Both the position numbers and the translations under genes were made by a program. 20,000 nucleotides of DNA from an uncultured virus (IMG/VR IMGVR_UViG_3300042691_032227). Lineage: Duplodnaviria > Heunggongvirae > Uroviricota > Caudoviricetes. The notes below the pieces were generated by a model. That model did no database searches. It saw only the letters and a list, made by a program, of their open reading frames with translations, and was not told the origin of the DNA. The stretch's first letter is position 1. Each line of letters opens with the position of its first letter. The stretch lies in the IMG/VR virus record IMGVR_UViG_3300042691_032227, one strand, 5' to 3'. This document shows, one piece after another, positions 4,311 through 20,000 of the stretch.

Positions 4311-4748
4311 ATGAAATTAAAACATTTACTAGAAAATTCTACTGAACACGCATATACTCCACTTACCGTATATGAAAAGAAGAACATGGTTGAAACCATT
4401 AAGGCTTATAACGAATATCGTAAGGGATTGAAAGCTGATGGAGTTTATGCTACTGCTCAAAAAATAATGGAAGCTGTAAATTTGGCTGAACGTTATGCTT
4501 TGAAAGAATGTGGCGATTGGATGGAAGCTAAGATGGTAGAACGTGATATGAAAGAAATCAAACGTGATGCCGCTAAGATGTACGAAGAAGCACAAAAGAT
4601 GAAAGCCATTGAAAAACAACTAGAAATGTTGTATGAAGAAGTGGGTCGTCGTTTGGAAAGATATTTTGAAATTGCCGACCCAGCACAAATTTCACCACAA
4701 TCAAATGAAGTTAAAGCTTCGTCCACTTCATCGGAATTGAGTCAATAA
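4311..4748 (+). CDS. Hypothetical coiled-coil protein, probable prohead core/internal protein
   Basis: 145-aa helical ORF after the protease with the N-terminal leader MKLKHLLE. Confidence 0.75.
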   Translation: MKLKHLLENSTEHAYTPLTVYEKKNMVETIKAYNEYRKGLKADGVYATAQKIMEAVNLAERYALKECGDWMEAKMVERDMKEIKRDAAKMYEEAQKMKAIEKQLEMLYEEVGRRLERYFEIADPAQISPQSNEVKASSTSSELSQ

Positions 4749-5184
4749 ATTCCAACATTTTATCGAACGTTTCAAAAACGTATTTTCTATTAGTTTCAAT
4801 AACATAACCTTCGTCAGTTTTATAGACGAAGGTTTTTATTTTTTCATTTTCCATTTTAATTGACGGTACTTCAATTTCACTAAACATTTTGTAGTCGTCA
4901 TCAATTCTAAAGTTCATTTCTCCCAATATATCAAGTTCTTTAAAGTCCCAACCATTTGGGTGGTCAATATCTTCCAATTTATAAATCTTTACATCTTCTT
5001 CAAAGTTATCTGTATTGATAAAGTTTATTAATTTTGGACTTTTATGATTATTATAGTTGTTATTTAACGCACGAACATCTGGATTAGAATATGGAGTTTC
5101 ATTTCCGGTTCTCTTGATATTTTTATATGTATCCTTGGATTGATTCATGTGTCTGTTGAAATTAGGATTAAAATTGTATGGCAT
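4711..5184 (-). CDS. Hypothetical protein (157 aa)
   Basis: It starts 1 nt after the stop of the 5186..5779 ORF and has a plausible composition (acidic C-terminal domain). It overlaps ORF 4311 convergently by 38 nt. Confidence 0.7.
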   Translation of the reverse strand: MPYNFNPNFNRHMNQSKDTYKNIKRTGNETPYSNPDVRALNNNYNNHKSPKLINFINTDNFEEDVKIYKLEDIDHPNGWDFKELDILGEMNFRIDDDYKMFSEIEVPSIKMENEKIKTFVYKTDEGYVIETNRKYVFETFDKMLEFIDSIPMKWTKL

Positions 5185-5185
5185 A

Positions 5186-5779
5186 TTAAATGGATCCTAG
5201 GGTTGTATTAATACGATCAATAAAGTCTGCTAGTGTTTTTGTTTTGTCAGCAATATCTTTATCATCAAAACTGTTGCTCAATAAATCGAGAATTTCTTTT
5301 TCAGGTTTGTCTGGAAACGATCTTTCTATAAAACAAGCGTATTTGTATGTACCGTCGTTTTTATCAACTAGTTTTTTAAATACAAATTTTTTGTTTGTAT
5401 TGTTGCTGCTAATTTCGGTATATACTTCATTTGTATTTTTGTTGTTTTTAAATGAAGTTTTGCCGAATCCAGCAAATCCATTTTGTTTATTTTGAAATAC
5501 TTCTAATTCTTTTTCAGAAAACGGCAAACCTACTTGTTTCAATAAATGTTGTTTAAAACTTACATTCTTTATTGATTTTACCTTACTCAAACTATATTCA
5601 TTTTCTTTTATTTGATTAAGAATTTCTTTTAACTTAGTAAAGTCCTTTACACTACTAGGTTTAATTGTACGAGCCATCTTACGTACTTGTGGAGATACTT
5701 CTTTGCTTTTAATTCCACCTTTTTGTAGAGCTCTGACTAGTCTAAAAAGTCTTGCTTGTTTTTCACTTTTTGCAGGCAT
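5186..5779 (-). CDS. Hypothetical protein with a DUF3008-like basic N-terminal module
   Basis: The N-terminus MPAKSEKQARLFRLVRALQKG...VRKMARTIKPSSVKDF resembles the short 'MPAKS..QQ' module (DUF3008-like, from recall). ATATTTAT lies 6 nt upstream on the - strand (5786-5793). Confidence 0.7.
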   Translation of the reverse strand: MPAKSEKQARLFRLVRALQKGGIKSKEVSPQVRKMARTIKPSSVKDFTKLKEILNQIKENEYSLSKVKSIKNVSFKQHLLKQVGLPFSEKELEVFQNKQNGFAGFGKTSFKNNKNTNEVYTEISSNNTNKKFVFKKLVDKNDGTYKYACFIERSFPDKPEKEILDLLSNSFDDKDIADKTKTLADFIDRINTTLGSI

Positions 5780-7069: not shown

Positions 7070-8899
7070 ATGAGTATGGACGTAAAGAGTCTATTGACAA
7101 ACAACATGAATCCACAAGCCAAATTGATGGCCGAAACCCGTGGACTACAAAACAAATGGGAAAAGACAGGCCTTCTAGAAGGTTGCCAAGGTGTTGAAAA
7201 AGCACACATGTCTATCCTTTTGGAAAACCAAGCAAAGCAATTGCTTGACGAAGCAACCACAACTGGTACTTCTACCAGTTCTGAACAATGGGCTGGCGTA
7301 GCTCTTCCATTGGTTCGCCGTGTGTTCGCTGAAATCGCTGCGAAGGAATTCGTAAGCGTTCAACCAATGAACCTACCATCCGGTCTAATTTTCTATTTAG
7401 ACTTCAAGTATGGTACAACCGCTCCAAACCAAGACTTGCGTAACTTGAACAATGGTACCTCAAAGACCACCCGTGCAGGTAAGCAATTGAACGACAGTTT
7501 GTTCGGTGGTACAGGTAAGAAATTGGGTTCAACTGATGCAGCAGTACGTGGTCTATACGGTCAAGGTGCTTATGCATATTCTATCCGTCCAGTAAGTAGC
7601 TCTTTGATTACACTTGCTAAAAGTGCAACCGCTACTTCAATCGGTAACACAATTCAAACAGCTTCATGGAACGACGTTCAATTTGATGCTGAATTGAGTG
7701 CTTCTGTAGTTGCTAAGAAGTTGTTCAAGGTTACCTTGAATCACGGTGATAACGTAACCAGTGGTATCGGTGCTAATGGTTACATGTACAACGTTGATTT
7801 GAACGCAGTACGTTCATTCAACTTGATCTCTGGTTCAACCACTCCAACTTCTCTAAGAAGCAATGGTTTGGTACTAAATACCTACAGCAAGGCAATCAAC
7901 ACTGGTAGTTTAAATACTCCATTCTATCAAACAGTTTACATTGTTTCTGCTTCTAACAGCGCTATCGGCGGTGTAGCAAGCAATGTTAAGTTGATCTATA
8001 GTCTACAACCTACCGATAACCTACGTGGTGATTTCGAAGCTGGTAAGACTTCAGGTGAAGGTTCTGGTACACAAGGTAACGTTGCTACACAAAGCATCGA
8101 TACTGATATCAGTATCCCAGAAGTAAACTTGGTACTAAACAGCGAACCAATCGTTGCTAAGACCCGTAAGTTGAAGGCAGTCTGGACCCCAGAATTGGCT
8201 CAAGACTTGAACGCATATCACTCTATTGATGCAGAAGCAGAATTGACTGCTCTATTGAGTGAATATGTATCTATGGAAATCGATCTCGAAATCCTAGACA
8301 TGTTGAACGAATCCGTTGAAGGTCAAACAACCGAAGCTTGGTCCGCCCAAATCGGTGTTGAATTCAGCAAGGCAATCAACGCAACAACCGGTGAAGCAAT
8401 CTTCACACGTAATGCAAACAGTTCACCAAACCGTACTGCTTACGTAAAGAGCACCTGGTTCCAAACTCTTGGTAACAAGATTCAAAAGGTATCTAACACA
8501 ATCCAAAAATTGACCCTCCGTGGTGGTGCTAACTTCTTGGTCGTAAGTCCAGACGTAGCAACCATCTTGGAATCAATCCCAGGATATGTTGTAAACACTG
8601 ACGGTGATCAAGCTAAGTTCGCAATGGGCGTAAGCCGTGTTGGTAGCTTCGCAAGTCGCTTCCAAGTTTACAAGAACCCATATATGACCGATAACGTTGT
8701 ATTGGTTGGTTTCCGTGGAAACAACTTCCTAGAAACCGGTGCTGTATATGCTCCATATATCCCACTAATCCAAACTCCATTGGTCTATGATCCAGTGAAC
8801 TTCACACCACGTAGAGGTGTAATGACCCGCTACGCTAAGAAGGTAGTACGTCCAGAGTTCTACGGTAAGGTCATCATCGGTGATCTAGACACTGTATAA
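7070..8899 (+). CDS. gp23: T4 gp23-like major capsid protein (609 aa)
   Basis: Motifs KWEKTGLLEG, LPLVRRVF, VSVQPMNLPSGLIFYLDF, AKTRKLKAVWTPELAQDLNAYHSIDAEAELT, YAPYIPL and FTPRRGVMTRY. Codon use looks typical of a highly expressed gene (aac/ttc/atc). Confidence 0.98.
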   Translation: MSMDVKSLLTNNMNPQAKLMAETRGLQNKWEKTGLLEGCQGVEKAHMSILLENQAKQLLDEATTTGTSTSSEQWAGVALPLVRRVFAEIAAKEFVSVQPMNLPSGLIFYLDFKYGTTAPNQDLRNLNNGTSKTTRAGKQLNDSLFGGTGKKLGSTDAAVRGLYGQGAYAYSIRPVSSSLITLAKSATATSIGNTIQTASWNDVQFDAELSASVVAKKLFKVTLNHGDNVTSGIGANGYMYNVDLNAVRSFNLISGSTTPTSLRSNGLVLNTYSKAINTGSLNTPFYQTVYIVSASNSAIGGVASNVKLIYSLQPTDNLRGDFEAGKTSGEGSGTQGNVATQSIDTDISIPEVNLVLNSEPIVAKTRKLKAVWTPELAQDLNAYHSIDAEAELTALLSEYVSMEIDLEILDMLNESVEGQTTEAWSAQIGVEFSKAINATTGEAIFTRNANSSPNRTAYVKSTWFQTLGNKIQKVSNTIQKLTLRGGANFLVVSPDVATILESIPGYVVNTDGDQAKFAMGVSRVGSFASRFQVYKNPYMTDNVVLVGFRGNNFLETGAVYAPYIPLIQTPLVYDPVNFTPRRGVMTRYAKKVVRPEFYGKVIIGDLDTV

Positions 8900-8923: not shown

Positions 8924-8954
8924 AAACCCTCTACCGAAAGGTAGGGGGTTTTTT
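8924..8954 (+). terminator. Intrinsic terminator after the MCP
   Basis: AAACCCTCTACC-GAAA-GGTAGGGGGTTT forms a 12-bp stem with one G-U pair and a GAAA loop, followed by a T run. It abuts the stop of the convergent Mom-like gene. Confidence 0.92.
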
Positions 8955-9726
8955 ATTCAAAAAATTGATTGGTGTTTTGTACAACTATTTCTTGAACTTC
9001 TTCTTTGAATGAAGCATTTTTGGGGTAATCAAGAACTTTATGTTTTAGTGATTTGACAAGTTTCTTGTTCTCTATCTTGTTGCTAATAAATTTGATATAA
9101 CGATACTTGCCACTTTCACGTTTACGCCAAAATGTTCTACCTATACGTTCTTTTAGTTTATCTACACTATGTGTTTTCCACTTAGCATATACACTTCTAC
9201 TGTGTATCCATTTATAATTCGGGGGACCATCTAAACTAACACTATAGTTAGGCATTAGTGCCACATCGACATAATTATCGCCTTGAAAGAGAAAGCCTGT
9301 AGCTTGATAGATTGTACCTTTATGTCCAACTTCACTGTCAGCATAACTAAGAATACATTTTATGTAGGGATGTTCTATATTTAACAATCTGAAACTTTCA
9401 GCTATACAATAGCTTTCTATATTTTTACCGTAACCATCGGCAATCCACAGTCGTGTTAATTCCAACACATTGTTATTAGTAAGTAGTGGAGATATACTGG
9501 TACTAGCGTTTCTACCCACGGCATTTCCATATACTAATACACCTATTAATCTTTCGTTAAAACCACCAAAGAATGTACTTTCTATATATTCTTTATAATA
9601 AACTCCATAAGCTACAGTACATAGACTCCATTTATGTGTATAGTGATTCTTCTCAATAAGTGTTCTTGCAACATTCTTATTGATACTTTTTAAAAAAATT
9701 TGAGATGTATCACAATACTCCGACAT
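8953..9726 (-). CDS. mom: Mom-like (GNAT-fold) DNA adenine modification protein
   Basis: Motifs IEKNHYTH, LIGVLVYG, VLELTRLW, KNIESYCI and ILSYADSEVGHKGTIYQATGF match the Mu Mom family pattern. The start is reassigned to ATG 9726 (MSEYCDTS). Confidence 0.85.
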   Translation of the reverse strand: MSEYCDTSQIFLKSINKNVARTLIEKNHYTHKWSLCTVAYGVYYKEYIESTFFGGFNERLIGVLVYGNAVGRNASTSISPLLTNNNVLELTRLWIADGYGKNIESYCIAESFRLLNIEHPYIKCILSYADSEVGHKGTIYQATGFLFQGDNYVDVALMPNYSVSLDGPPNYKWIHSRSVYAKWKTHSVDKLKERIGRTFWRKRESGKYRYIKFISNKIENKKLVKSLKHKVLDYPKNASFKEEVQEIVVQNTNQFFE

Positions 9727-9732
9727 TATTTG

Positions 9733-9760
9733 ATTATAACAATACAATTCGGAGTGTCAA
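9733..9760 (-). promoter_or_regulatory. Consensus sigma70 promoter for the Mom-like gene
   Basis: The - strand reads TTGACA (9760-9755), a 16-nt spacer ending in TGt, TATAAT (9738-9733), 6 nt, then ATG. Confidence 0.85.
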
Positions 9761-9761
9761 G

Positions 9762-9977
9762 CTATAATATATAAAATAACCCCCTAGAATTATAAACTAC
9801 AATTTTTATTTTTGTTTGATTTATTTCATCTACCCCAAACCTATCAGTTATTTGAAATGGGTCTGGATGATGAACTGACTCTTCTCTTGCAATTATTTTA
9901 TTTTGTACTTTATATACATCCAAATCAGTATTTGTTATGTCTGGATGATATTGTCTGACCAAAGGCATCATTTTCAT
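9762..9977 (-). CDS. Hypothetical protein (71 aa)
   Basis: ATGA overlap with the cyclase stop (9974-9977). The ORF fills the gap up to the Mom promoter. Confidence 0.6.
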   Translation of the reverse strand: MKMMPLVRQYHPDITNTDLDVYKVQNKIIAREESVHHPDPFQITDRFGVDEINQTKIKIVVYNSRGLFYIL

Positions 9978-11755
9978 AGTTGTTTATTATTTAATGGTTC
10001 TATTTTTTTAACTCTTGTGGATGGAAACTCTTTATTACCAAAATCACTACCATATAAACTATATAGATGCATTACGACACCATGTTTAACTACTACATCT
10101 CCTAAATCTTGCACTAAAACATATTGTGGTCTATCATATTTAAGTATAACATCCGCACTTACTAATAAATGATTAGCTTCCCCAGAATCCATGACTCTTT
10201 GTGCATAATTAATTCCATCACCACTAATATTAAGGTTGCCATTAATATCTTCTAGTGGACATACATCTCCCCAGTGGATACCCATTCTCATTTGTAAGTC
10301 AGGTCTGTTTTTTACTGCTTTTGCTACCGTGATACCACAATTAATTGCATCTTCTAAATAAGTAAAAAATCCAAGTATCATTCCATCGCCGGTTGGTAGT
10401 ACAATAAGTTTTTCTAAAGCGTTTGCAGTTTTGAATTGTATTGTACCTTTAACAATTTCAGCTAAATCTTTAAAACACTTTCTTTGTTCTTCTGTTGTTT
10501 TTTTGCTATATCCAACAATATCCATAAAGAAGATATAGCCTGGTTGTATTACATCCAACTCAAGACGACTTGATTTAACTTCAGCCTCAATAACCTCGAC
10601 TTGTTTGATTATCTTTTTGGGAGGTTTTGGTGGATCTGGTTTTCTTTCTTCTACAGCTTTTATTTCTTCCGCTGGTTTGTTTTTACTTTTCAAAAAGTCT
10701 TGCCAGTTAATTGTTTTCTTTTCTTTATTTTTTACATTTTTATTTTTTTGTTCTTCTTCTTCTTGAATCTTTTTGAGACGAGCTTCTTCACGTTCTCTGC
10801 GTTCAAAATATCTACGCATTTCATCTTTAAGAACGACCGATACATCAATATATGTATCAGGCCCACTACCGCCAGTTTCTACTTTCTTTTTTCTGGTACC
10901 ACCCTTGGCTTGTAATAAGGCTTGCATTTTTACATTACCTGTTTTTATTGCCAAGTCTAATGGAGCTATTTCTCCTTTAAAATCCGCACCATTTACATTT
11001 GCGCCTAAACAAATTAGGTATTCTACCATTTCAATATCACCAGCATTAACAGCATAATGAATAGGCATCCATCCATTTTTATCGTCTCTTCCATTGATTT
11101 TACCATCAACATCATAGAATTTTTGAACACCCGCAAAATCACCCGTTTCAGCGCAAAAATGGATGCTTGATCCATAGGCAGATTTAGCTCCTGCTTTTAC
11201 TAATATTCTGACAATTTCTCCTCGGTTACCCAACGCGAGAACATCAATCGGATTGTTCTTACCTAAGAAATCTTTAGCGTTAACATCTACACCACGAACA
11301 ATTAAATACTCGACAAGATGTTTTTGTCCATAATGAACAGCGTAGTGTAAAGCAGTCCATCCTTTTGCAGCGTCCACCTCATTAAGAGTATGACCTTTGT
11401 TGAGCATTTCTTCTACAGAAACAATATCACCATTTTTTGCAGCCAAATGAAAACTGCTTCCGCTGCCATATCTCGCGCCTTTTTTCTGTAAAATTTCTAT
11501 TAAAGCAATGTGGTTTTTTTGTTCTGCAATATCTAATGCAGTATTTTTACCTGTCCAATCAGTAATATTAGGATCGGCGCCATGATTTAGTAATAAAGTT
11601 ACTATTTCTTTTTGATTTTCTTCAACAGCGACAATAAGAGGAGGATTACCTGTATCATCGTCTCGTTGGTTAACATTTACTTTATCACGTTCTATACAAT
11701 TGTAAACGTTGTCGTATAGACCTCTTCTAATAAGGGTAAAAATATTAATTGGCAT
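9974..11755 (-). CDS. Ankyrin-repeat / class III nucleotide (adenylate/guanylate-type) cyclase fusion (593 aa)
   Basis: About 9 ankyrin repeats (e.g. GWTALHYAVHYGQKHLVEYLIVRGVDVNAKD), a charged linker, then FMDIVGYS, LPTGDG, MRMGIHWG, GDGINYAQRV, LLVS and VKHG. The start is reassigned from 11815 to ATG 11755 (MPINIF). Confidence 0.92.
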   Translation of the reverse strand: MPINIFTLIRRGLYDNVYNCIERDKVNVNQRDDDTGNPPLIVAVEENQKEIVTLLLNHGADPNITDWTGKNTALDIAEQKNHIALIEILQKKGARYGSGSSFHLAAKNGDIVSVEEMLNKGHTLNEVDAAKGWTALHYAVHYGQKHLVEYLIVRGVDVNAKDFLGKNNPIDVLALGNRGEIVRILVKAGAKSAYGSSIHFCAETGDFAGVQKFYDVDGKINGRDDKNGWMPIHYAVNAGDIEMVEYLICLGANVNGADFKGEIAPLDLAIKTGNVKMQALLQAKGGTRKKKVETGGSGPDTYIDVSVVLKDEMRRYFERREREEARLKKIQEEEEQKNKNVKNKEKKTINWQDFLKSKNKPAEEIKAVEERKPDPPKPPKKIIKQVEVIEAEVKSSRLELDVIQPGYIFFMDIVGYSKKTTEEQRKCFKDLAEIVKGTIQFKTANALEKLIVLPTGDGMILGFFTYLEDAINCGITVAKAVKNRPDLQMRMGIHWGDVCPLEDINGNLNISGDGINYAQRVMDSGEANHLLVSADVILKYDRPQYVLVQDLGDVVVKHGVVMHLYSLYGSDFGNKEFPSTRVKKIEPLNNKQL

Positions 11756-11765
11756 AGTTAATAAA

Positions 11766-12143
11766 TTAGTCTTTTTTGAAACGAGACAAATCCAATTGAG
11801 GTAATGGTTTTTCAATATTCAAACCAGATAATCTTTCGTTTTGGATAACTAATTTACTACCGCCCACAACTTTACCATCAACTACATCGTATATAAAGAA
11901 TACGGTTTTGGTTAAACCAACTCTTACAATACGACCTGGTTTACCATCTATGAATACAACATCATCTTCTTTGTAATCACTGCCGATAAACATGAAAAGT
12001 GCTGCTGCAAACTTTTCAATACTCGATTTAAACATCAATGCAATCACTCCTGCTATAAACAACCAGACATATTTGCCCGTTAAATCTTGTGCGGTTGATT
12101 CTAATACCTTTTCTGATATTACATGTACTGAGTTTGTTTCCAT
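11766..12143 (-). CDS. Minimal MscS-like protein (TM segment plus middle beta domain)
   Basis: The hydrophobic stretch YVWLFIAGVIALMFKSSIEKFAAALFMFI is followed by YKEDDVVFIDGKPGRIVRVGLTKTVF...LVIQNERL. This parallels the MscS pattern PFKVGDxIxIxGxxGxVxxIGLRxT...IPN. Confidence 0.72.
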   Translation of the reverse strand: METNSVHVISEKVLESTAQDLTGKYVWLFIAGVIALMFKSSIEKFAAALFMFIGSDYKEDDVVFIDGKPGRIVRVGLTKTVFFIYDVVDGKVVGGSKLVIQNERLSGLNIEKPLPQLDLSRFKKD

Positions 12144-12220
12144 ATTTATATTGACTTTTACTACTAAATACTACCAACATCAAAACAAGTAGAAAGTCAT
12201 AACAAATATATTAATAAATA

Positions 12221-12628
12221 TCAAATGATGTATTTCAGAATAAAAAAGTTACAAAGTAGATGATAAGTGTTGTCACTAATAATATATAACCAAGTGGTAA
12301 TAAATTTGGGTCTAGCTGTAGTACAATCATTATTCCAATCATCATAATAGCCTGTAACTTTGCATTTGTCATACGATGGATATGACCAGTCTGGACCTAT
12401 ACGATTTTTGTACCACACGAAGTATTTAATAATACACCATCTATCTTGAATAAAATGTGTGAAGAATATCAAGAAAAGAGCTAATATATTATGTGTTAAT
12501 AATATAAATGGTAATGTATAAGTTAAACAATGAACTAAACAAGGAATTGTTCGTTTATTTTTATTTAGAGCCATCCAATCAGATTGAAGATAATAATCTG
12601 ACACCAAATGTGCTAGTAATTGTTCCAT
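12221..12628 (-). CDS. DUF3307-like membrane protein
   Basis: Motifs LLAHLVSDYYLQSDWMALNK, LVHCLTY, THFIQD and SDNTYH, with hydrophobic helices. Confidence 0.82.
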   Translation of the reverse strand: MEQLLAHLVSDYYLQSDWMALNKNKRTIPCLVHCLTYTLPFILLTHNILALFLIFFTHFIQDRWCIIKYFVWYKNRIGPDWSYPSYDKCKVTGYYDDWNNDCTTARPKFITTWLYIISDNTYHLLCNFFILKYII

Positions 12629-12643
12629 AACACTTATACAATA

Positions 12644-13603
12644 TTATCGTTTCCATTTTAATTCAACTAAAATATCATTAATTAGATCCTTTTCGTGACT
12701 ATCGAATTCTTTGTCAAATCTCTTAAGAACTTCTTCCAATGAATATGTTCTATCAGGCGCATCTTTTTGTTTTTCTTTTAATTCTTGTATTACGTCAACA
12801 ATTTTGGTAAGTGGCGATTTATACTCATCTACCGTATCTCTTGAAGCAAAATTGGCCATTTCAAAGGCTTTTGGTGTTAATCCTTTAATCAAACTTAAAA
12901 CCATAGAGCCAAACATATTAAATATACTAAATGCTGCTCCAGCAACTGGATTGACCATAGATAGTACTCTTAATACTAAGAATATAACTCCAAATATTAT
13001 TATGCCGGTTAATGCACTAAAGAAGAATTTTTTCATTCCCCATATTACAGCATTAAGACCAAACATACCACTCATACCATCCAAAGTTGCTTTATTTGCA
13101 TCCGCTTGTTTAGCTACTTCTTTAGCTTTTTCGTTCATGTCCCACATCTGATTATCATATTGTTCTTTTAACTCAGATGTTTCTTTTTGTAATTTATTTA
13201 TAATTTCATCCTTTTCTGCTAACATTTTCTCGCCACGTTTACGTTCTTCAACCACGGCTGAATTTAATAAGTCTACCATTTGTTTAACTTTATTAAGTTC
13301 ATCTATGTGTGGTGTACCTACTATAGAAATAACACGTTCATTCAGATCTTTAGCTGTTTTAACTTGACTTGGAGGATTTGTTACGGCACTTAGTGAATGT
13401 TGAATGCCGGCGGCTAAAGTAGCAGTTTGTATTTTTTTCTGTTTGTTATTTTTATCAAGATCGTCGATTGTGTTTTCGACCTTCTTTTCTTCTTTAGCAA
13501 GTTTTTTCTGATTATCATCGGTTGGTTTTGCTGGAGGAACCGTTGCGCAACTCAATACAAAAAACGACAACAATATTGTTATAATATAAGATAACTTCTT
13601 CAT
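12644..13603 (-). CDS. Lipoprotein with coiled coil and C-proximal TM helices (319 aa), possible unimolecular spanin
   Basis: The start is reassigned to ATG 13603, giving MKKLSYIITILLSFFVLS-C (signal peptide II/lipobox). About 170 aa of helical/coiled coil follow, then FFFSALTGIIIFGVIFLVLRVL and a second hydrophobic stretch. Confidence 0.65.
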   Translation of the reverse strand: MKKLSYIITILLSFFVLSCATVPPAKPTDDNQKKLAKEEKKVENTIDDLDKNNKQKKIQTATLAAGIQHSLSAVTNPPSQVKTAKDLNERVISIVGTPHIDELNKVKQMVDLLNSAVVEERKRGEKMLAEKDEIINKLQKETSELKEQYDNQMWDMNEKAKEVAKQADANKATLDGMSGMFGLNAVIWGMKKFFFSALTGIIIFGVIFLVLRVLSMVNPVAGAAFSIFNMFGSMVLSLIKGLTPKAFEMANFASRDTVDEYKSPLTKIVDVIQELKEKQKDAPDRTYSLEEVLKRFDKEFDSHEKDLINDILVELKWKR

Positions 13604-13617
13604 ATTTATAAATATGA
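13600..13617. promoter_or_regulatory. Palindromic bidirectional promoter/start element
   Basis: TCATATTTATAAATATGA is a perfect 18-bp palindrome. It contains both divergent start codons and has ATATTTAT on each strand. Confidence 0.75.
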
Positions 13618-19037: not shown

Positions 19038-20000
19038 ATGGCAAGTTGTAATCATAATACATGTCCACCAAGCGCTTGTGTATTAACAAACGCAATAAAA
19101 GACTATAAGAAAGCTAGATCCAGTGTAAATGATGCTAGTCTAAAACCATTTCTTAAAATAATAGAAGCTCTACAAGCTGAAATTAATTGTAAATCAGGTG
19201 GTAATACTTTTTCTACAGGTAAAGCATTTCCTTGTGATAATCCACTAACTACATGGACTTTTAACCACAATCTAGGTAGTAAGTTAGCTCTCATTCAAGT
19301 TTATGATGAAAATTTTAATCAATTAATACCAGAAACAATTGAATTGCTTGACGAAAATACAGCTGAAATTACATTTTCTACACCATCATGTGGATATGCA
19401 GTAGCTAACAGCACACCAACAACATTTTCAGGTACATCCGGCAGCAGTGGATCAAGTACTAGCGGAACAGCTGGTACATCAGGTACATCCGGTAGTAGCG
19501 GTACCAGTGGAGTTTCTGCTAGCAGTGGTTCAAGTGGAACAAGTGGAAGTTCCGCTACTAGTGGTAGTTCAGGTAGTAGTGGTACATCAGGTACAAGCGG
19601 AAGTAGTGGTACAAATGGAAGTTCGGGTACAACCGGATTAAGCGGTACAGGCGGAACTTCAGGTACAGCCGGTAGTAGTGGTACAAGTGGATTAAGTGGA
19701 GGAATTCCTGGATCAAGTGGTACAAGTGGTACTACCGGTGAAAGTGGTACAAACGGTAGTAACGGCACCGGTGGTAGCAGCGGTACAAATGGTAGCGCCG
19801 GTACAAGCGGTACAAGTGGTAGTAGTGGTAATAACGGCACAAGCGGAATTAGTAATAACAGTGGTAGTAGTGGTACAAGTGGAAGTAGTGGTACAAGTGG
19901 TAGTGCGGGTACTACCGGTACAAGTACCATAAGCAAAACAAGCGGTAGCAGTGGTACAAGTGGTAGTAGCGGTACAACTACAACGGATGGCACCTCACAA
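19038..20000 (+). CDS. Putative fibre/virion protein with a Gly-X-Y (GTS/GSS) repeat, 3'-truncated and absent from the ORF track
   Basis: Manual translation from ATG 19038 gives MASCNHNTCPPSAC...TTWTFNHNLGSKLALIQVYDENFNQLIPETIELLDENTAEITFSTPSCGYAV, then GTSGSSGSS..., open to the window end. Confidence 0.88.
   Translation, partial: MASCNHNTCPPSACVLTNAIKDYKKARSSVNDASLKPFLKIIEALQAEINCKSGGNTFSTGKAFPCDNPLTTWTFNHNLGSKLALIQVYDENFNQLIPETIELLDENTAEITFSTPSCGYAVANSTPTTFSGTSGSSGSSTSGTAGTSGTSGSSGTSGVSASSGSSGTSGSSATSGSSGSSGTSGTSGSSGTNGSSGTTGLSGTGGTSGTAGSSGTSGLSGGIPGSSGTSGTTGESGTNGSNGTGGSSGTNGSAGTSGTSGSSGNNGTSGISNNSGSSGTSGSSGTSGSAGTTGTSTISKTSGSSGTSGSSGTTTTDGTSQ
19431..20000 (+). repeat. Degenerate 9-bp coding tandem repeat (GGT ACA AGT / GGT AGT AGT)
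   Basis: About 60 triplets of G-[TS]-[SNTA] with a few interruptions (ASS, ATS, GGIP, NNS, TISKTS, TTD). Confidence 0.92.

Follow-up and report, generated by a model that had tools for sequence, protein, structure and literature searches.

Does a bacteriophage that carries a nucleotide cyclase gene next to the gene of a channel-derived membrane protein carry a signalling system of its own? The question is raised by a block of minus-strand genes in IMGVR_UViG_3300042691_032227, an IMG/VR record of an uncultured T4-like phage from lake water/freshwater. The stretch of this record that was analysed, here called the window, is 20,000 nucleotides (nt) long and is part of the structural module of the phage. 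Four genes of the block, which code for a DUF3307 membrane protein, a short protein derived from the channel MscS (mini-MscS), a fusion of ankyrin repeats with a class III cyclase domain (Ank-cyclase) and a protein of 71 amino acids (aa) named orf71, had previously been read as a single cassette in which a sensor cyclase acts through a membrane effector. The analysis led us to a different arrangement, a mosaic accessory ('moron') island made of two conserved and separable units plus an incidental insert, in which the signal of the cyclase would be read by receptors of the host; we give this reading a somewhat better than even chance. In the first unit, a lipoprotein with a membrane hairpin and mini-MscS would provide a small inner-membrane pore or complex. 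In the second, the Ank-cyclase, translationally coupled to orf71, would make a cyclic nucleotide (cyclic nucleotide monophosphate, cNMP) in the infected cell; its ankyrin domain may dock on a conserved cellular protein, and the host receptors would then respond to the product.

The enzyme at the centre of the question has about 290 residues of ankyrin repeats at its N-terminal end (Pfam Ank_2, E 1.8e-36), joined by a charged linker to a class III nucleotide cyclase domain at the C-terminal end. The match of this domain to Guanylate_cyc (PF00211, E 1.1e-4, 22.3 bits for a cut-off of 21.9) covers the C-terminal half of the model only, and the orthologues in five large relatives score 24-25 bits. 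Searches against the PDB recovered 3mr7 (E 2.4e-4), Rv1900c (1ybt, E 0.0088) and 4wp9 (E 0.035). All 16 Ank-cyclases aligned, among them the 40%-identical protein of locus L078 (loci are given L numbers throughout), share four invariant motifs, FFMDIV, PTGDGM, RMG.H.G and NISGDGIN.AQRVMD, and we take these to hold the two metal-binding aspartates, the transition-state arginine and the asparagine/arginine pair of class III cyclases. When the domain is aligned with Rv1900c and 3mr7, the metal-binding Asp pair, the Arg of RxGxHxG and the Asn/Arg of GxxxNxAxR fall on their counterparts. The family model and the catalytic motifs thus assign the protein to the class III cyclases, and it is probably an active enzyme, predicted to make a cyclic nucleotide during infection. 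Its two classical base-specifying positions, read from the Rv1900c alignment, hold Leu and Asn in place of Lys/Asp or Glu/Cys, so that the product is not predictable. The gene is under purifying selection, with a rough ratio of non-synonymous to synonymous substitution (dN/dS) of 0.03-0.14. The same holds for orf71, mini-MscS and the lipoprotein gene, and over the four genes dN/dS lies at 0.03-0.24 in 15 of 16 comparisons; it was not computable in the sixteenth, where synonymous sites are saturated. The small partner encoded next to the cyclase, orf71, has 27 invariant columns in 13 sequences and a dN/dS of 0.13-0.24. It belongs to no family in Pfam, PHROGs, PADLOC or NCBIfam, its best Atlas score (0.80) is at chance level, and the predicted complex of Ank-cyclase with orf71 scored 0.00, which speaks neither for nor against an interaction. 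Among GenBank phages, a tblastn search with the cyclase returned 16 records, all with ankyrin-repeat matches only and none reaching a coverage of 80%.

The protein encoded just ahead of the cyclase turned out to be a reduced form of MscS. In its AlphaFold2 (AF2) model (predicted local distance difference test, pLDDT, 90.8), a helix at residues 5-53 and four strands make up one long helix equivalent to the pore-lining TM3a/TM3b of MscS (TM, transmembrane helix) followed by the MscS beta-domain; the TM1-TM2 sensor paddle and the C-terminal alpha/beta (vestibule) domain are both missing. A Foldseek search of the PDB, whose top matches belong almost without exception to the MscS family, gave 11 at E<=0.001, all of the MscS type (E. 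coli MscS, a YnaI-MscS chimera and AtMSL10). The E values to the MscS family ranged from 3e-4 to 1e-3 and the TM-scores (query) from 0.45 to 0.58, and the minimal MscS of Trypanosoma cruzi was also among the top ranks. When a profile of the family was compared with the PDB, 21 of 22 matches belonged to the MscS family (best 4hw9, E 0.0026), and the matched part spans TM3 and the beginning of the beta-domain. The window's protein alone has no Pfam match above the cut-off (PF00924, E 0.013, 16 bits for a required 20.2), and PF00924 is matched by 38 of the 64 aligned family members (E<=0.1, best 1.7e-6). In a large protein database 1449 protein clusters match the family at E<=1e-3. At 50% clustering the family has 244 representatives, and the best 150 of the 244 are all 41-229 aa long. 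No tblastn match to mini-MscS was found in GenBank phages. Family profile and predicted fold together confirm a family of standalone small viral and metagenomic proteins, apparently derived from MscS and predicted to contain TM3 and the beta-domain and nothing else. Such a reduction to pore helix and beta-domain is of interest to channel biophysics, whatever the role of the protein in infection. The identities that had originally been given to Ank-cyclase, mini-MscS and DUF3307 were all confirmed, by Pfam and, for mini-MscS, by AF2 and Foldseek.

The second member of this unit is a lipoprotein with a signal peptide that ends in a lipobox cysteine (Cys19, invariant in 16 of 16 aligned relatives), a long helical or coiled-coil region, a two-helix membrane hairpin and a C-terminal domain of about 85 aa. 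No family in Pfam, PADLOC or NCBIfam matched it above threshold, its AF2 model is all-helical and of low confidence (pLDDT 57.4), and a search of the ESM Atlas returned viral hypothetical clusters only. Lipoprotein and mini-MscS most likely form or modify a small inner-membrane pore or complex.

How these genes are organised in related phages was addressed by scanning IMG/VR with the cyclase, which gave 77 loci, and with mini-MscS, which gave 80; the contigs overlap largely and represent one clade, and the counts were scripted. The mini-MscS gene lies directly upstream of the cyclase gene in 69 of 75 testable loci. In two others (L003, L048) a pair of small membrane genes intervenes, mini-MscS still lying upstream at a distance of no more than 1.3 kb, and in the remaining four (L018, L047, L049, L078) it is not upstream. 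The gene for orf71 follows the cyclase in 60 of 73. The closest association of all was found on the other side: the lipoprotein gene precedes mini-MscS in 73 of 74 testable loci and is its tightest and constant partner. This gene lies just outside the region originally singled out and had been overlooked there.

Downstream of mini-MscS, a cyclic-nucleotide gene occurs within 1.3 kb in all 76 testable loci of the clade. The gene that follows is an Ank-cyclase in 70 loci, a membrane-sensor cyclase in four and an HD protein in two. The membrane-sensor cyclase (482 aa) combines a canonical class III domain (PF00211, E 6.6e-27) with a pair of TM helices and a region predicted to lie in the periplasm. 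Six loci keep the pair lipoprotein–mini-MscS without an Ank-cyclase at the locus (L108, L119, L132, L136, L151, L152), and in two of them (L119:5394-8267, L108:5384-8246) mini-MscS is followed by a signal-peptide beta-barrel-like protein of 215 aa, the 482-aa cyclase and an HD metalloprotein of 259 aa. Several relatives have both cyclases, the beta-barrel-like protein and the HD protein in one row. The HD protein has no sequence match in the PDB and weakly matches an uncharacterised HD family; that it is a phosphodiesterase is a guess. Because a cNMP gene follows mini-MscS at every testable locus, the joint theme of cyclic nucleotides and the envelope is a real property of the island in this clade.

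A shared theme is not the same as a single system, and two further observations show that the island consists of two separable units. First, identities between the window and its relatives are discordant: to L003 they are 93% for the cyclase, 77% for mini-MscS and 66% for the lipoprotein, and to L009 they are 72%, 88% and 86%, respectively. Second, in three contigs (L018/L132, L047/L152 and L049/L151) the pair cyclase–orf71 lies 12-15 kb away from the pair lipoprotein–mini-MscS. The four-gene cassette is thereby replaced by the units lipoprotein–mini-MscS and Ank-cyclase–orf71, with DUF3307 as an incidental addition. What the original prediction had named as speaking against it, related phages with DUF3307 and mini-MscS but no cyclase at the locus, or the reverse, and no phenotype that depends on the cyclase, is borne out in part: relatives keep lipoprotein–mini-MscS with no Ank-cyclase beside it, and Ank-cyclases without mini-MscS occur in L018, L047, L049, L078 and three Verrucomicrobiota genomes. 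The survey it called for returned the expected co-occurrence of the cyclase with mini-MscS and orf71 and failed to return that with DUF3307, present beside them in 1 of 77 loci. What survives of the proposal of a sensor cyclase with a membrane effector is a predicted active Ank-cyclase with an MscS-derived protein directly upstream and the unbroken downstream association described above; what does not survive is DUF3307 as a member, a SatD-like partner for it and the analogy with Pycsar and CBASS.

Separable units may also be units that have nothing to do with each other. The space between two structural operons could be a permissive insertion hot-spot, and the co-occurrence of its genes a matter of common descent in one clade. 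The contents of the island are indeed fluid: DUF3307 is found in two different slots, L003 has two added small membrane-protein genes (206 and 108 aa; L003:7060-8008) between mini-MscS and the cyclase, and the beta-barrel-like protein, the second cyclase and the HD protein come and go. Further, the neighbouring Mom gene has a consensus promoter to itself, the close loci all come from a single clade, and each unit is found alone elsewhere. An absence of any functional link nevertheless appears unlikely to us, although it is to be taken seriously, for two different cyclases and an HD metalloprotein would be an improbable random draw for one island, the intergenic distances are very short, and the block lipoprotein–mini-MscS–cyclase–orf71 stays intact in a second context with no capsid or Mom genes nearby (L003-L008, L039, L046). 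In L003, orf71 is followed by a gene (L003:10030-10251) for a coiled-coil protein of 73 aa that has a TM helix at its C-terminal end; this protein recurs in L108.

The gene that separates from the rest most clearly is that of DUF3307. The assignment itself is firm (PF11750, E 1e-7, 32.4 bits for a cut-off of 23; phrog_6676, E 2.9e-33). Of the 77 loci, only that of the window's own record has this gene placed after the lipoprotein gene and before mini-MscS, and in the alignment of DNA with L009, L017 and L119 it appears as about 410 extra bases. A scan of IMG/VR with DUF3307 itself gave 20 loci, of which one is the window's record, two have the gene in another slot (cyclase–orf71–DUF3307–Mom) and 17 have no island gene within the fetched flanks. 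The DUF3307 gene, which codes for a small membrane protein, is thus mobile, a chance insert in this one genome and not a component of the island. Its inclusion in the cassette cannot be upheld on these counts, and for annotation it should be left out and the lipoprotein gene put in. The accompanying idea that DUF3307 (SatE) has a SatD-like partner here fared no better, as no island protein matches such a family in Pfam; the SatD/SatE pairing could not be confirmed in print either, PMC4886424 containing no mention of SatD or DUF3307. The reservation attached to the cassette, that DUF3307 and mini-MscS genes may occur independently of it, was well placed: it applies to the 17 of 20 DUF3307 loci and to all 32 distant loci of mini-MscS described next.

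A profile scan with mini-MscS (alignment A3) recovered 307 relatives in IMG/VR, and 32 of the 80 that were kept come from other lineages, at 40-60% identity; a single distant mini-MscS protein (P0165) used as query found no relative there. By tblastn, no other island protein, the cyclase included, was matched in any of the 32 distant loci, and none of the 115 neighbouring open reading frames (ORFs) in 14 of these loci matches Guanylate_cyc. In three of the 14 (L162, L167, L174), mini-MscS comes right after tail-fibre and tail-chaperone genes and an integrase gene lies within about 1.4 kb downstream. This placement in small temperate, integrase-bearing phages hints at a general role of mini-MscS that does not depend on a cyclase. 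Genes for lysis or conversion are often located after tail-fibre genes near an integrase, and the placement can thus be counted in favour of an envelope or lysis module, in which the lipoprotein would bridge the envelope in the manner of a spanin, its lipid anchor in the outer membrane, its coiled coil in the periplasm and its hairpin in the inner membrane, mini-MscS would be a holin-like pore or a pore for osmotic control, and the cyclases would tune the timing of lysis. The lipoprotein is a conceivable spanin, having its invariant lipobox cysteine followed by the long helical region and two hydrophobic helices, and mini-MscS keeps the pore-lining helix. Scans of the window matched no endolysin, holin or spanin family, the lipoprotein model is of low confidence, and the argument from position is circumstantial, so that we consider a lysis module very unlikely.

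One of the distant loci bears on cyclic nucleotides in another way. Two genes downstream of its mini-MscS, L191 codes for a 216-aa Popeye-like membrane protein (L191:7217-7867) with a cNMP-binding domain (PF00027, 8e-16). The arrangement recurs only in L192, which is identical to L191, and both belong to another lineage of large phages. The cyclase, in turn, was found alone in L078, an unrelated phage contig of higher guanine + cytosine (GC) content that has a 483-aa Ank-cyclase and no mini-MscS.

Relatives of the cyclase were also found in cells. One genome per prokaryote species was scanned with the Ank-cyclase, and four full-length relatives were obtained. One of them sits on a phage-like fragment of 34.5% GC together with orf71. 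The other three are encoded on Verrucomicrobiota contigs of 63-65% GC (L262, L263, L264) as an orthologue of 594 aa, which is identical to the phage protein at 408 of 587 positions (70%), collinear with it throughout, linker included, and of the same Pfam architecture. Its neighbours are genes for LigA (the NAD-dependent DNA ligase), a KdsB-like protein, an FGE-sulfatase and an HDOD protein, LigA being upstream in both longer contigs; mini-MscS, the lipoprotein and orf71 were not found near the gene in any of the three. Mis-binning of phage contigs was considered as an explanation and rejected in view of the GC content, the cellular neighbours and the synteny shared by two species. The orthologue is rare. 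It occurs in 3 of 81 genomes of one Verrucomicrobiota family (all three genomes), and the full-length protein in 1 of 401 sampled Verrucomicrobiota genomes (the centre genome), where three further genomes have the cyclase domain alone, at 39-44% identity and in other architectures. In a quick tree of Ank-cyclases, the three cellular sequences group together as a clade of their own (SH-aLRT, the approximate likelihood-ratio support, 100) inside a polytomy shared with the phage lineages; the branch to the outgroup is very long, and the direction of transfer is not readable from the tree. In phage and cell alike the gene is fully adapted in its base composition, from which it follows that the transfer is old and the protein strongly constrained. 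A 70%-identical chromosomal gene in three Verrucomicrobiota species also means that the cyclase works without the other genes of the island.

If the cyclase makes a signal, its receptor has to be sought. The caution that had accompanied the original prediction, that no cNMP-binding domain is visible, was borne out: such a domain is absent from the Pfam matches of mini-MscS, the lipoprotein, orf71 and the other proteins of the window, and a scan of 5 large relatives, of which two are rated 100% complete, found PF00027 in none and PF00211 in all five. The three Verrucomicrobiota genomes, in comparison, have 7-9 PF00027 matches each. In each of these genomes, the sole match to the mini-MscS profile is a protein of 511-540 aa that joins MscS to a C-terminal cNMP_binding domain (L290, L291, L292). 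The protein at L291:1048-2583 (511 aa) is bCNG-type (bCNG, bacterial cyclic nucleotide-gated), an MscS-like channel fused to a cNMP-binding domain. Because the phage lineage has no canonical cNMP-binding domain, the product of the Ank-cyclase would be read by host receptors, and mini-MscS is probably not a dedicated cNMP-binding effector.

The same data bear on the proposal of an integrated phage system, in which the ankyrin repeats would sense, the cyclase would make the cNMP and the pore of mini-MscS and lipoprotein would be the gated effector, for the purpose of superinfection exclusion, membrane depolarisation or counter-defence. Much in the clade agrees with it: the 10-nt gap between the mini-MscS and cyclase genes, their frequent adjacency and the cNMP gene that always follows, and the fact that a slot without the Ank-cyclase holds another cyclase or an HD protein. 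The bCNG channels, as described in PMC13591265, are a precedent, the genomes of the Verrucomicrobiota that have the Ank-cyclase encode a protein of just that composition, and L191 has a cNMP-binding protein close to mini-MscS. We nevertheless judge an integrated system to be distinctly unlikely. A cNMP-binding domain was found neither in mini-MscS, the lipoprotein and orf71 nor in the two complete relatives. By tblastn, the 32 distant mini-MscS loci are free of cyclases, and the L191 case is a single lineage. The cyclase exists without mini-MscS in L078 and in Verrucomicrobiota, and in three contigs 12-15 kb lie between the two; the units differ in their history of recombination, and the Ank-cyclase matches no PycC model.

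A less direct coupling can also be imagined, in which the phage cNMP acts on bCNG-type channels of the host, mini-MscS co-assembles with these channels or replaces them, and the lipoprotein anchors the assembly across the envelope, the outcome being the control of membrane potential, turgor and lysis timing. In MscS, the pore helix and the beta-domain make subunit contacts, and these are the parts that mini-MscS retains, whence co-assembly with host channels or substitution for them would follow. If true, this circuit would be the first case of a virus taking over a mechanosensitive or cNMP-gated channel system of bacteria; we regard it as a long shot, fainter than any other explanation considered here.

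Several points weigh against two units whose signal is read by the host. The score of the cyclase domain barely exceeds the Pfam cut-off and, with Leu and Asn at the base-specifying positions, activity of the predicted enzyme is not guaranteed; activity, product and receptor are all inferred from sequence. A non-canonical phage receptor is possible, and could be the beta-domain of mini-MscS, the C-terminus of the lipoprotein or orf71. The association of mini-MscS with cNMP genes in 76 of 76 loci comes from one clade (mini-MscS at least 77% identical) with overlapping contigs; the independent events behind it are few, and descent of one island from a shared ancestor, not function, could account for it. 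The variants with the second cyclase only may be simple deletions from a two-cyclase variant. Finally, GC content is about 33% in the phage and about 64% in the Verrucomicrobiota genomes, a gap that makes these bacteria unlikely as the actual hosts. The host-receptor model is nonetheless testable, and both the Verrucomicrobiota orthologue and the missing canonical phage receptor point to it. Second messengers related to phages are known mainly from the side of defence, where phages degrade or sponge the signals of the host. If the model is true, a widespread and strongly conserved phage cyclase gene would be a case of a virus writing into host signalling.

The surroundings of the island are those of a T4-like head and neck region (Table 1). 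By their capsid protein, the closest cultured relatives are a Microcystis phage (50%) and Flavobacterium phages (49%); at the level of DNA (blastn) the region has no match in GenBank phages, and a 13.6-kb IMG/VR record is identical to the window over the 4.8 kb compared. The position between capsid and neck genes had been correctly predicted, with the Gp23-type protein upstream and the adaptor-like and gp15-like proteins downstream. The four ORFs first described are all present on the minus strand at the positions assigned to them, exactly 10 nt separate the TAA of mini-MscS from the ATG of the cyclase, and the TGA of the cyclase and the ATG of orf71 overlap as ATGA, all as predicted. These four co-oriented antisense genes do exist, but six genes make up the minus-strand block that parts the capsid gene from the plus-strand genes further on, the Mom gene and the lipoprotein gene flanking the four. 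The 613-aa form of the Ank-cyclase in the ORF list corresponds to a start at an upstream TTG.

Table 1. Genes and sequence elements of the island and of the structural module around it (positions in the window)
Feature	Position	Strand	Basis or remark
Portal_T4 portal protein	upstream of island	plus	Pfam/PHROGs
Prohead protease	upstream of island	plus	Pfam/PHROGs
Gp23-type capsid protein	7070-8899	plus	upstream of island
Hairpin terminator, 12-bp stem	8924-8951		between Mom gene and convergent capsid gene
Mom-family DNA-modification gene	8953-9726	minus	Pfam PF25680 E 6e-41, phrog_1384
Sigma-70-type promoter, TTGACA, 16 nt, TATAAT, with TG	9733-9760	minus	between orf71 and Mom gene, 12/12 match
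orf71, 71 aa	9762-9977	minus	start overlaps cyclase stop
Ank-cyclase, 593 aa	9974-11755	minus	Pfam Ank_2 + Guanylate_cyc; ATG at 11755
mini-MscS, 125 aa	11766-12143	minus	fold + family profile
Spacer of 77 nt before mini-MscS	12144-12220	minus	its end is TATAAATA, touching the ATG
DUF3307 membrane protein, 135 aa	12221-12628	minus	Pfam PF11750, phrog_6676
Lipoprotein/TM protein ('TM349'), 319 aa	12644-13603	minus	ORF, ATG at 13603
GP88-family protein, adaptor-like protein, gp15-like sheath stabiliser	downstream of island	plus	
Collagen-like fibre protein	19038-20000, runs past window end	plus	Collagen E 1.5e-18

Signals for expression are consistent with more than one transcription unit in the block. 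The consensus sigma-70-type promoter in front of the Mom gene makes it likely that this gene is a transcription unit of its own, outside the cyclic-nucleotide theme. The octamer TATAAATA, which resembles a T4 late promoter, occurs at 11 sites in the window for 3.1 expected, a number that none of 200 shuffles reached; the sites include 1851-1858, 12143-12150, 13603-13610 and 13607-13614. At three genes the octamer touches the ATG, the one before mini-MscS being read as 12150-12143 on the minus strand. The divergent starts of the lipoprotein gene (minus, 13603) and of a 200-aa gene (plus, 13614) are parted by a 10-bp perfect palindrome, ATTTATAAAT (13601-13616), and as nothing else lies between them each promoter must sit inside the opposite gene. 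No Shine-Dalgarno motif was seen in the four upstream regions that were read (Ank-cyclase, DUF3307, Mom, orf71). Two metatranscriptome libraries (public runs, contigs only) contain error-free contig pieces of mini-MscS and of the lipoprotein gene, and one piece of 151 bases (11725-11875) spans the junction of mini-MscS and cyclase; they give at most a weak hint that the island is transcribed, DNA carry-over being possible, and stretches without such pieces carry no information. The structural module in the window has another accessory insertion at 4711-5779 (minus), where a second pair of small antisense genes, coding for 157 and 197 aa and of no clear family, separates the prohead protease gene from the head gene that comes after it.

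How the island relates to systems already described can be stated for each of its parts. A literature search that most subscription journals lay outside returned no paper on phage ankyrin cyclases or class III cyclases or on phage mini-MscS, and PMC12856327 mentions small proteins annotated as MscS in passing only. With Pycsar (pyrimidine cyclase system for antiphage resistance) and CBASS (cyclic-oligonucleotide-based antiphage signalling system) the island shares a cyclase gene beside a membrane-protein gene. It differs from them in being carried by a lytic-type phage and not by a defence island, and in having no cNMP-binding effector. In PADLOC, the Ank-cyclase matched no PycC model (E<=0.01) and no CD-NTase model, and none of nine proteins scanned matched a CBASS model; PycC models do match the membrane-sensor cyclase of L119 (1e-35), whose class III domain is canonical and would be expected to do so. 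Judged by these family models the system is neither Pycsar nor CBASS, and the analogy originally drawn with them falls, the window and two complete relatives being without a cNMP-binding effector.

The MscS family (E. coli, H. pylori, YnaI, AtMSL10, T. cruzi) shares with mini-MscS the TM3-like helix and the beta-domain; the phage protein, known from its predicted fold, differs in its length of 125 aa and in having neither paddle nor vestibule domain. The bCNG channels, which are MscS-like channels with a C-terminal cNMP-binding domain according to PMC13591265, provide a precedent for an MscS-type pore coupled to cyclic nucleotides. Since mini-MscS has no such domain, any coupling to a nucleotide would be in trans; the bCNG architecture shows that MscS and cNMP are coupled in nature, not that they are coupled in this island. 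The cyclase, for its part, resembles the soluble class III enzymes of Ruegeria pomeroyi (3mr7), M. tuberculosis (Rv1900c/LipJ, 1ybt) and M. avium (Ma1120, 4wp9), with which its catalytic residues align; it differs from them by the fusion to ankyrin repeats through a charged linker, by Leu and Asn at the base-specifying positions and by being borne by a phage and known from its sequence. Its chromosomal counterpart, the Ank-cyclase of Verrucomicrobiota, is collinear with it from end to end and of the same architecture, and differs in its GC context, in its LigA and FGE-sulfatase neighbours and in having no mini-MscS, lipoprotein or orf71 gene nearby.

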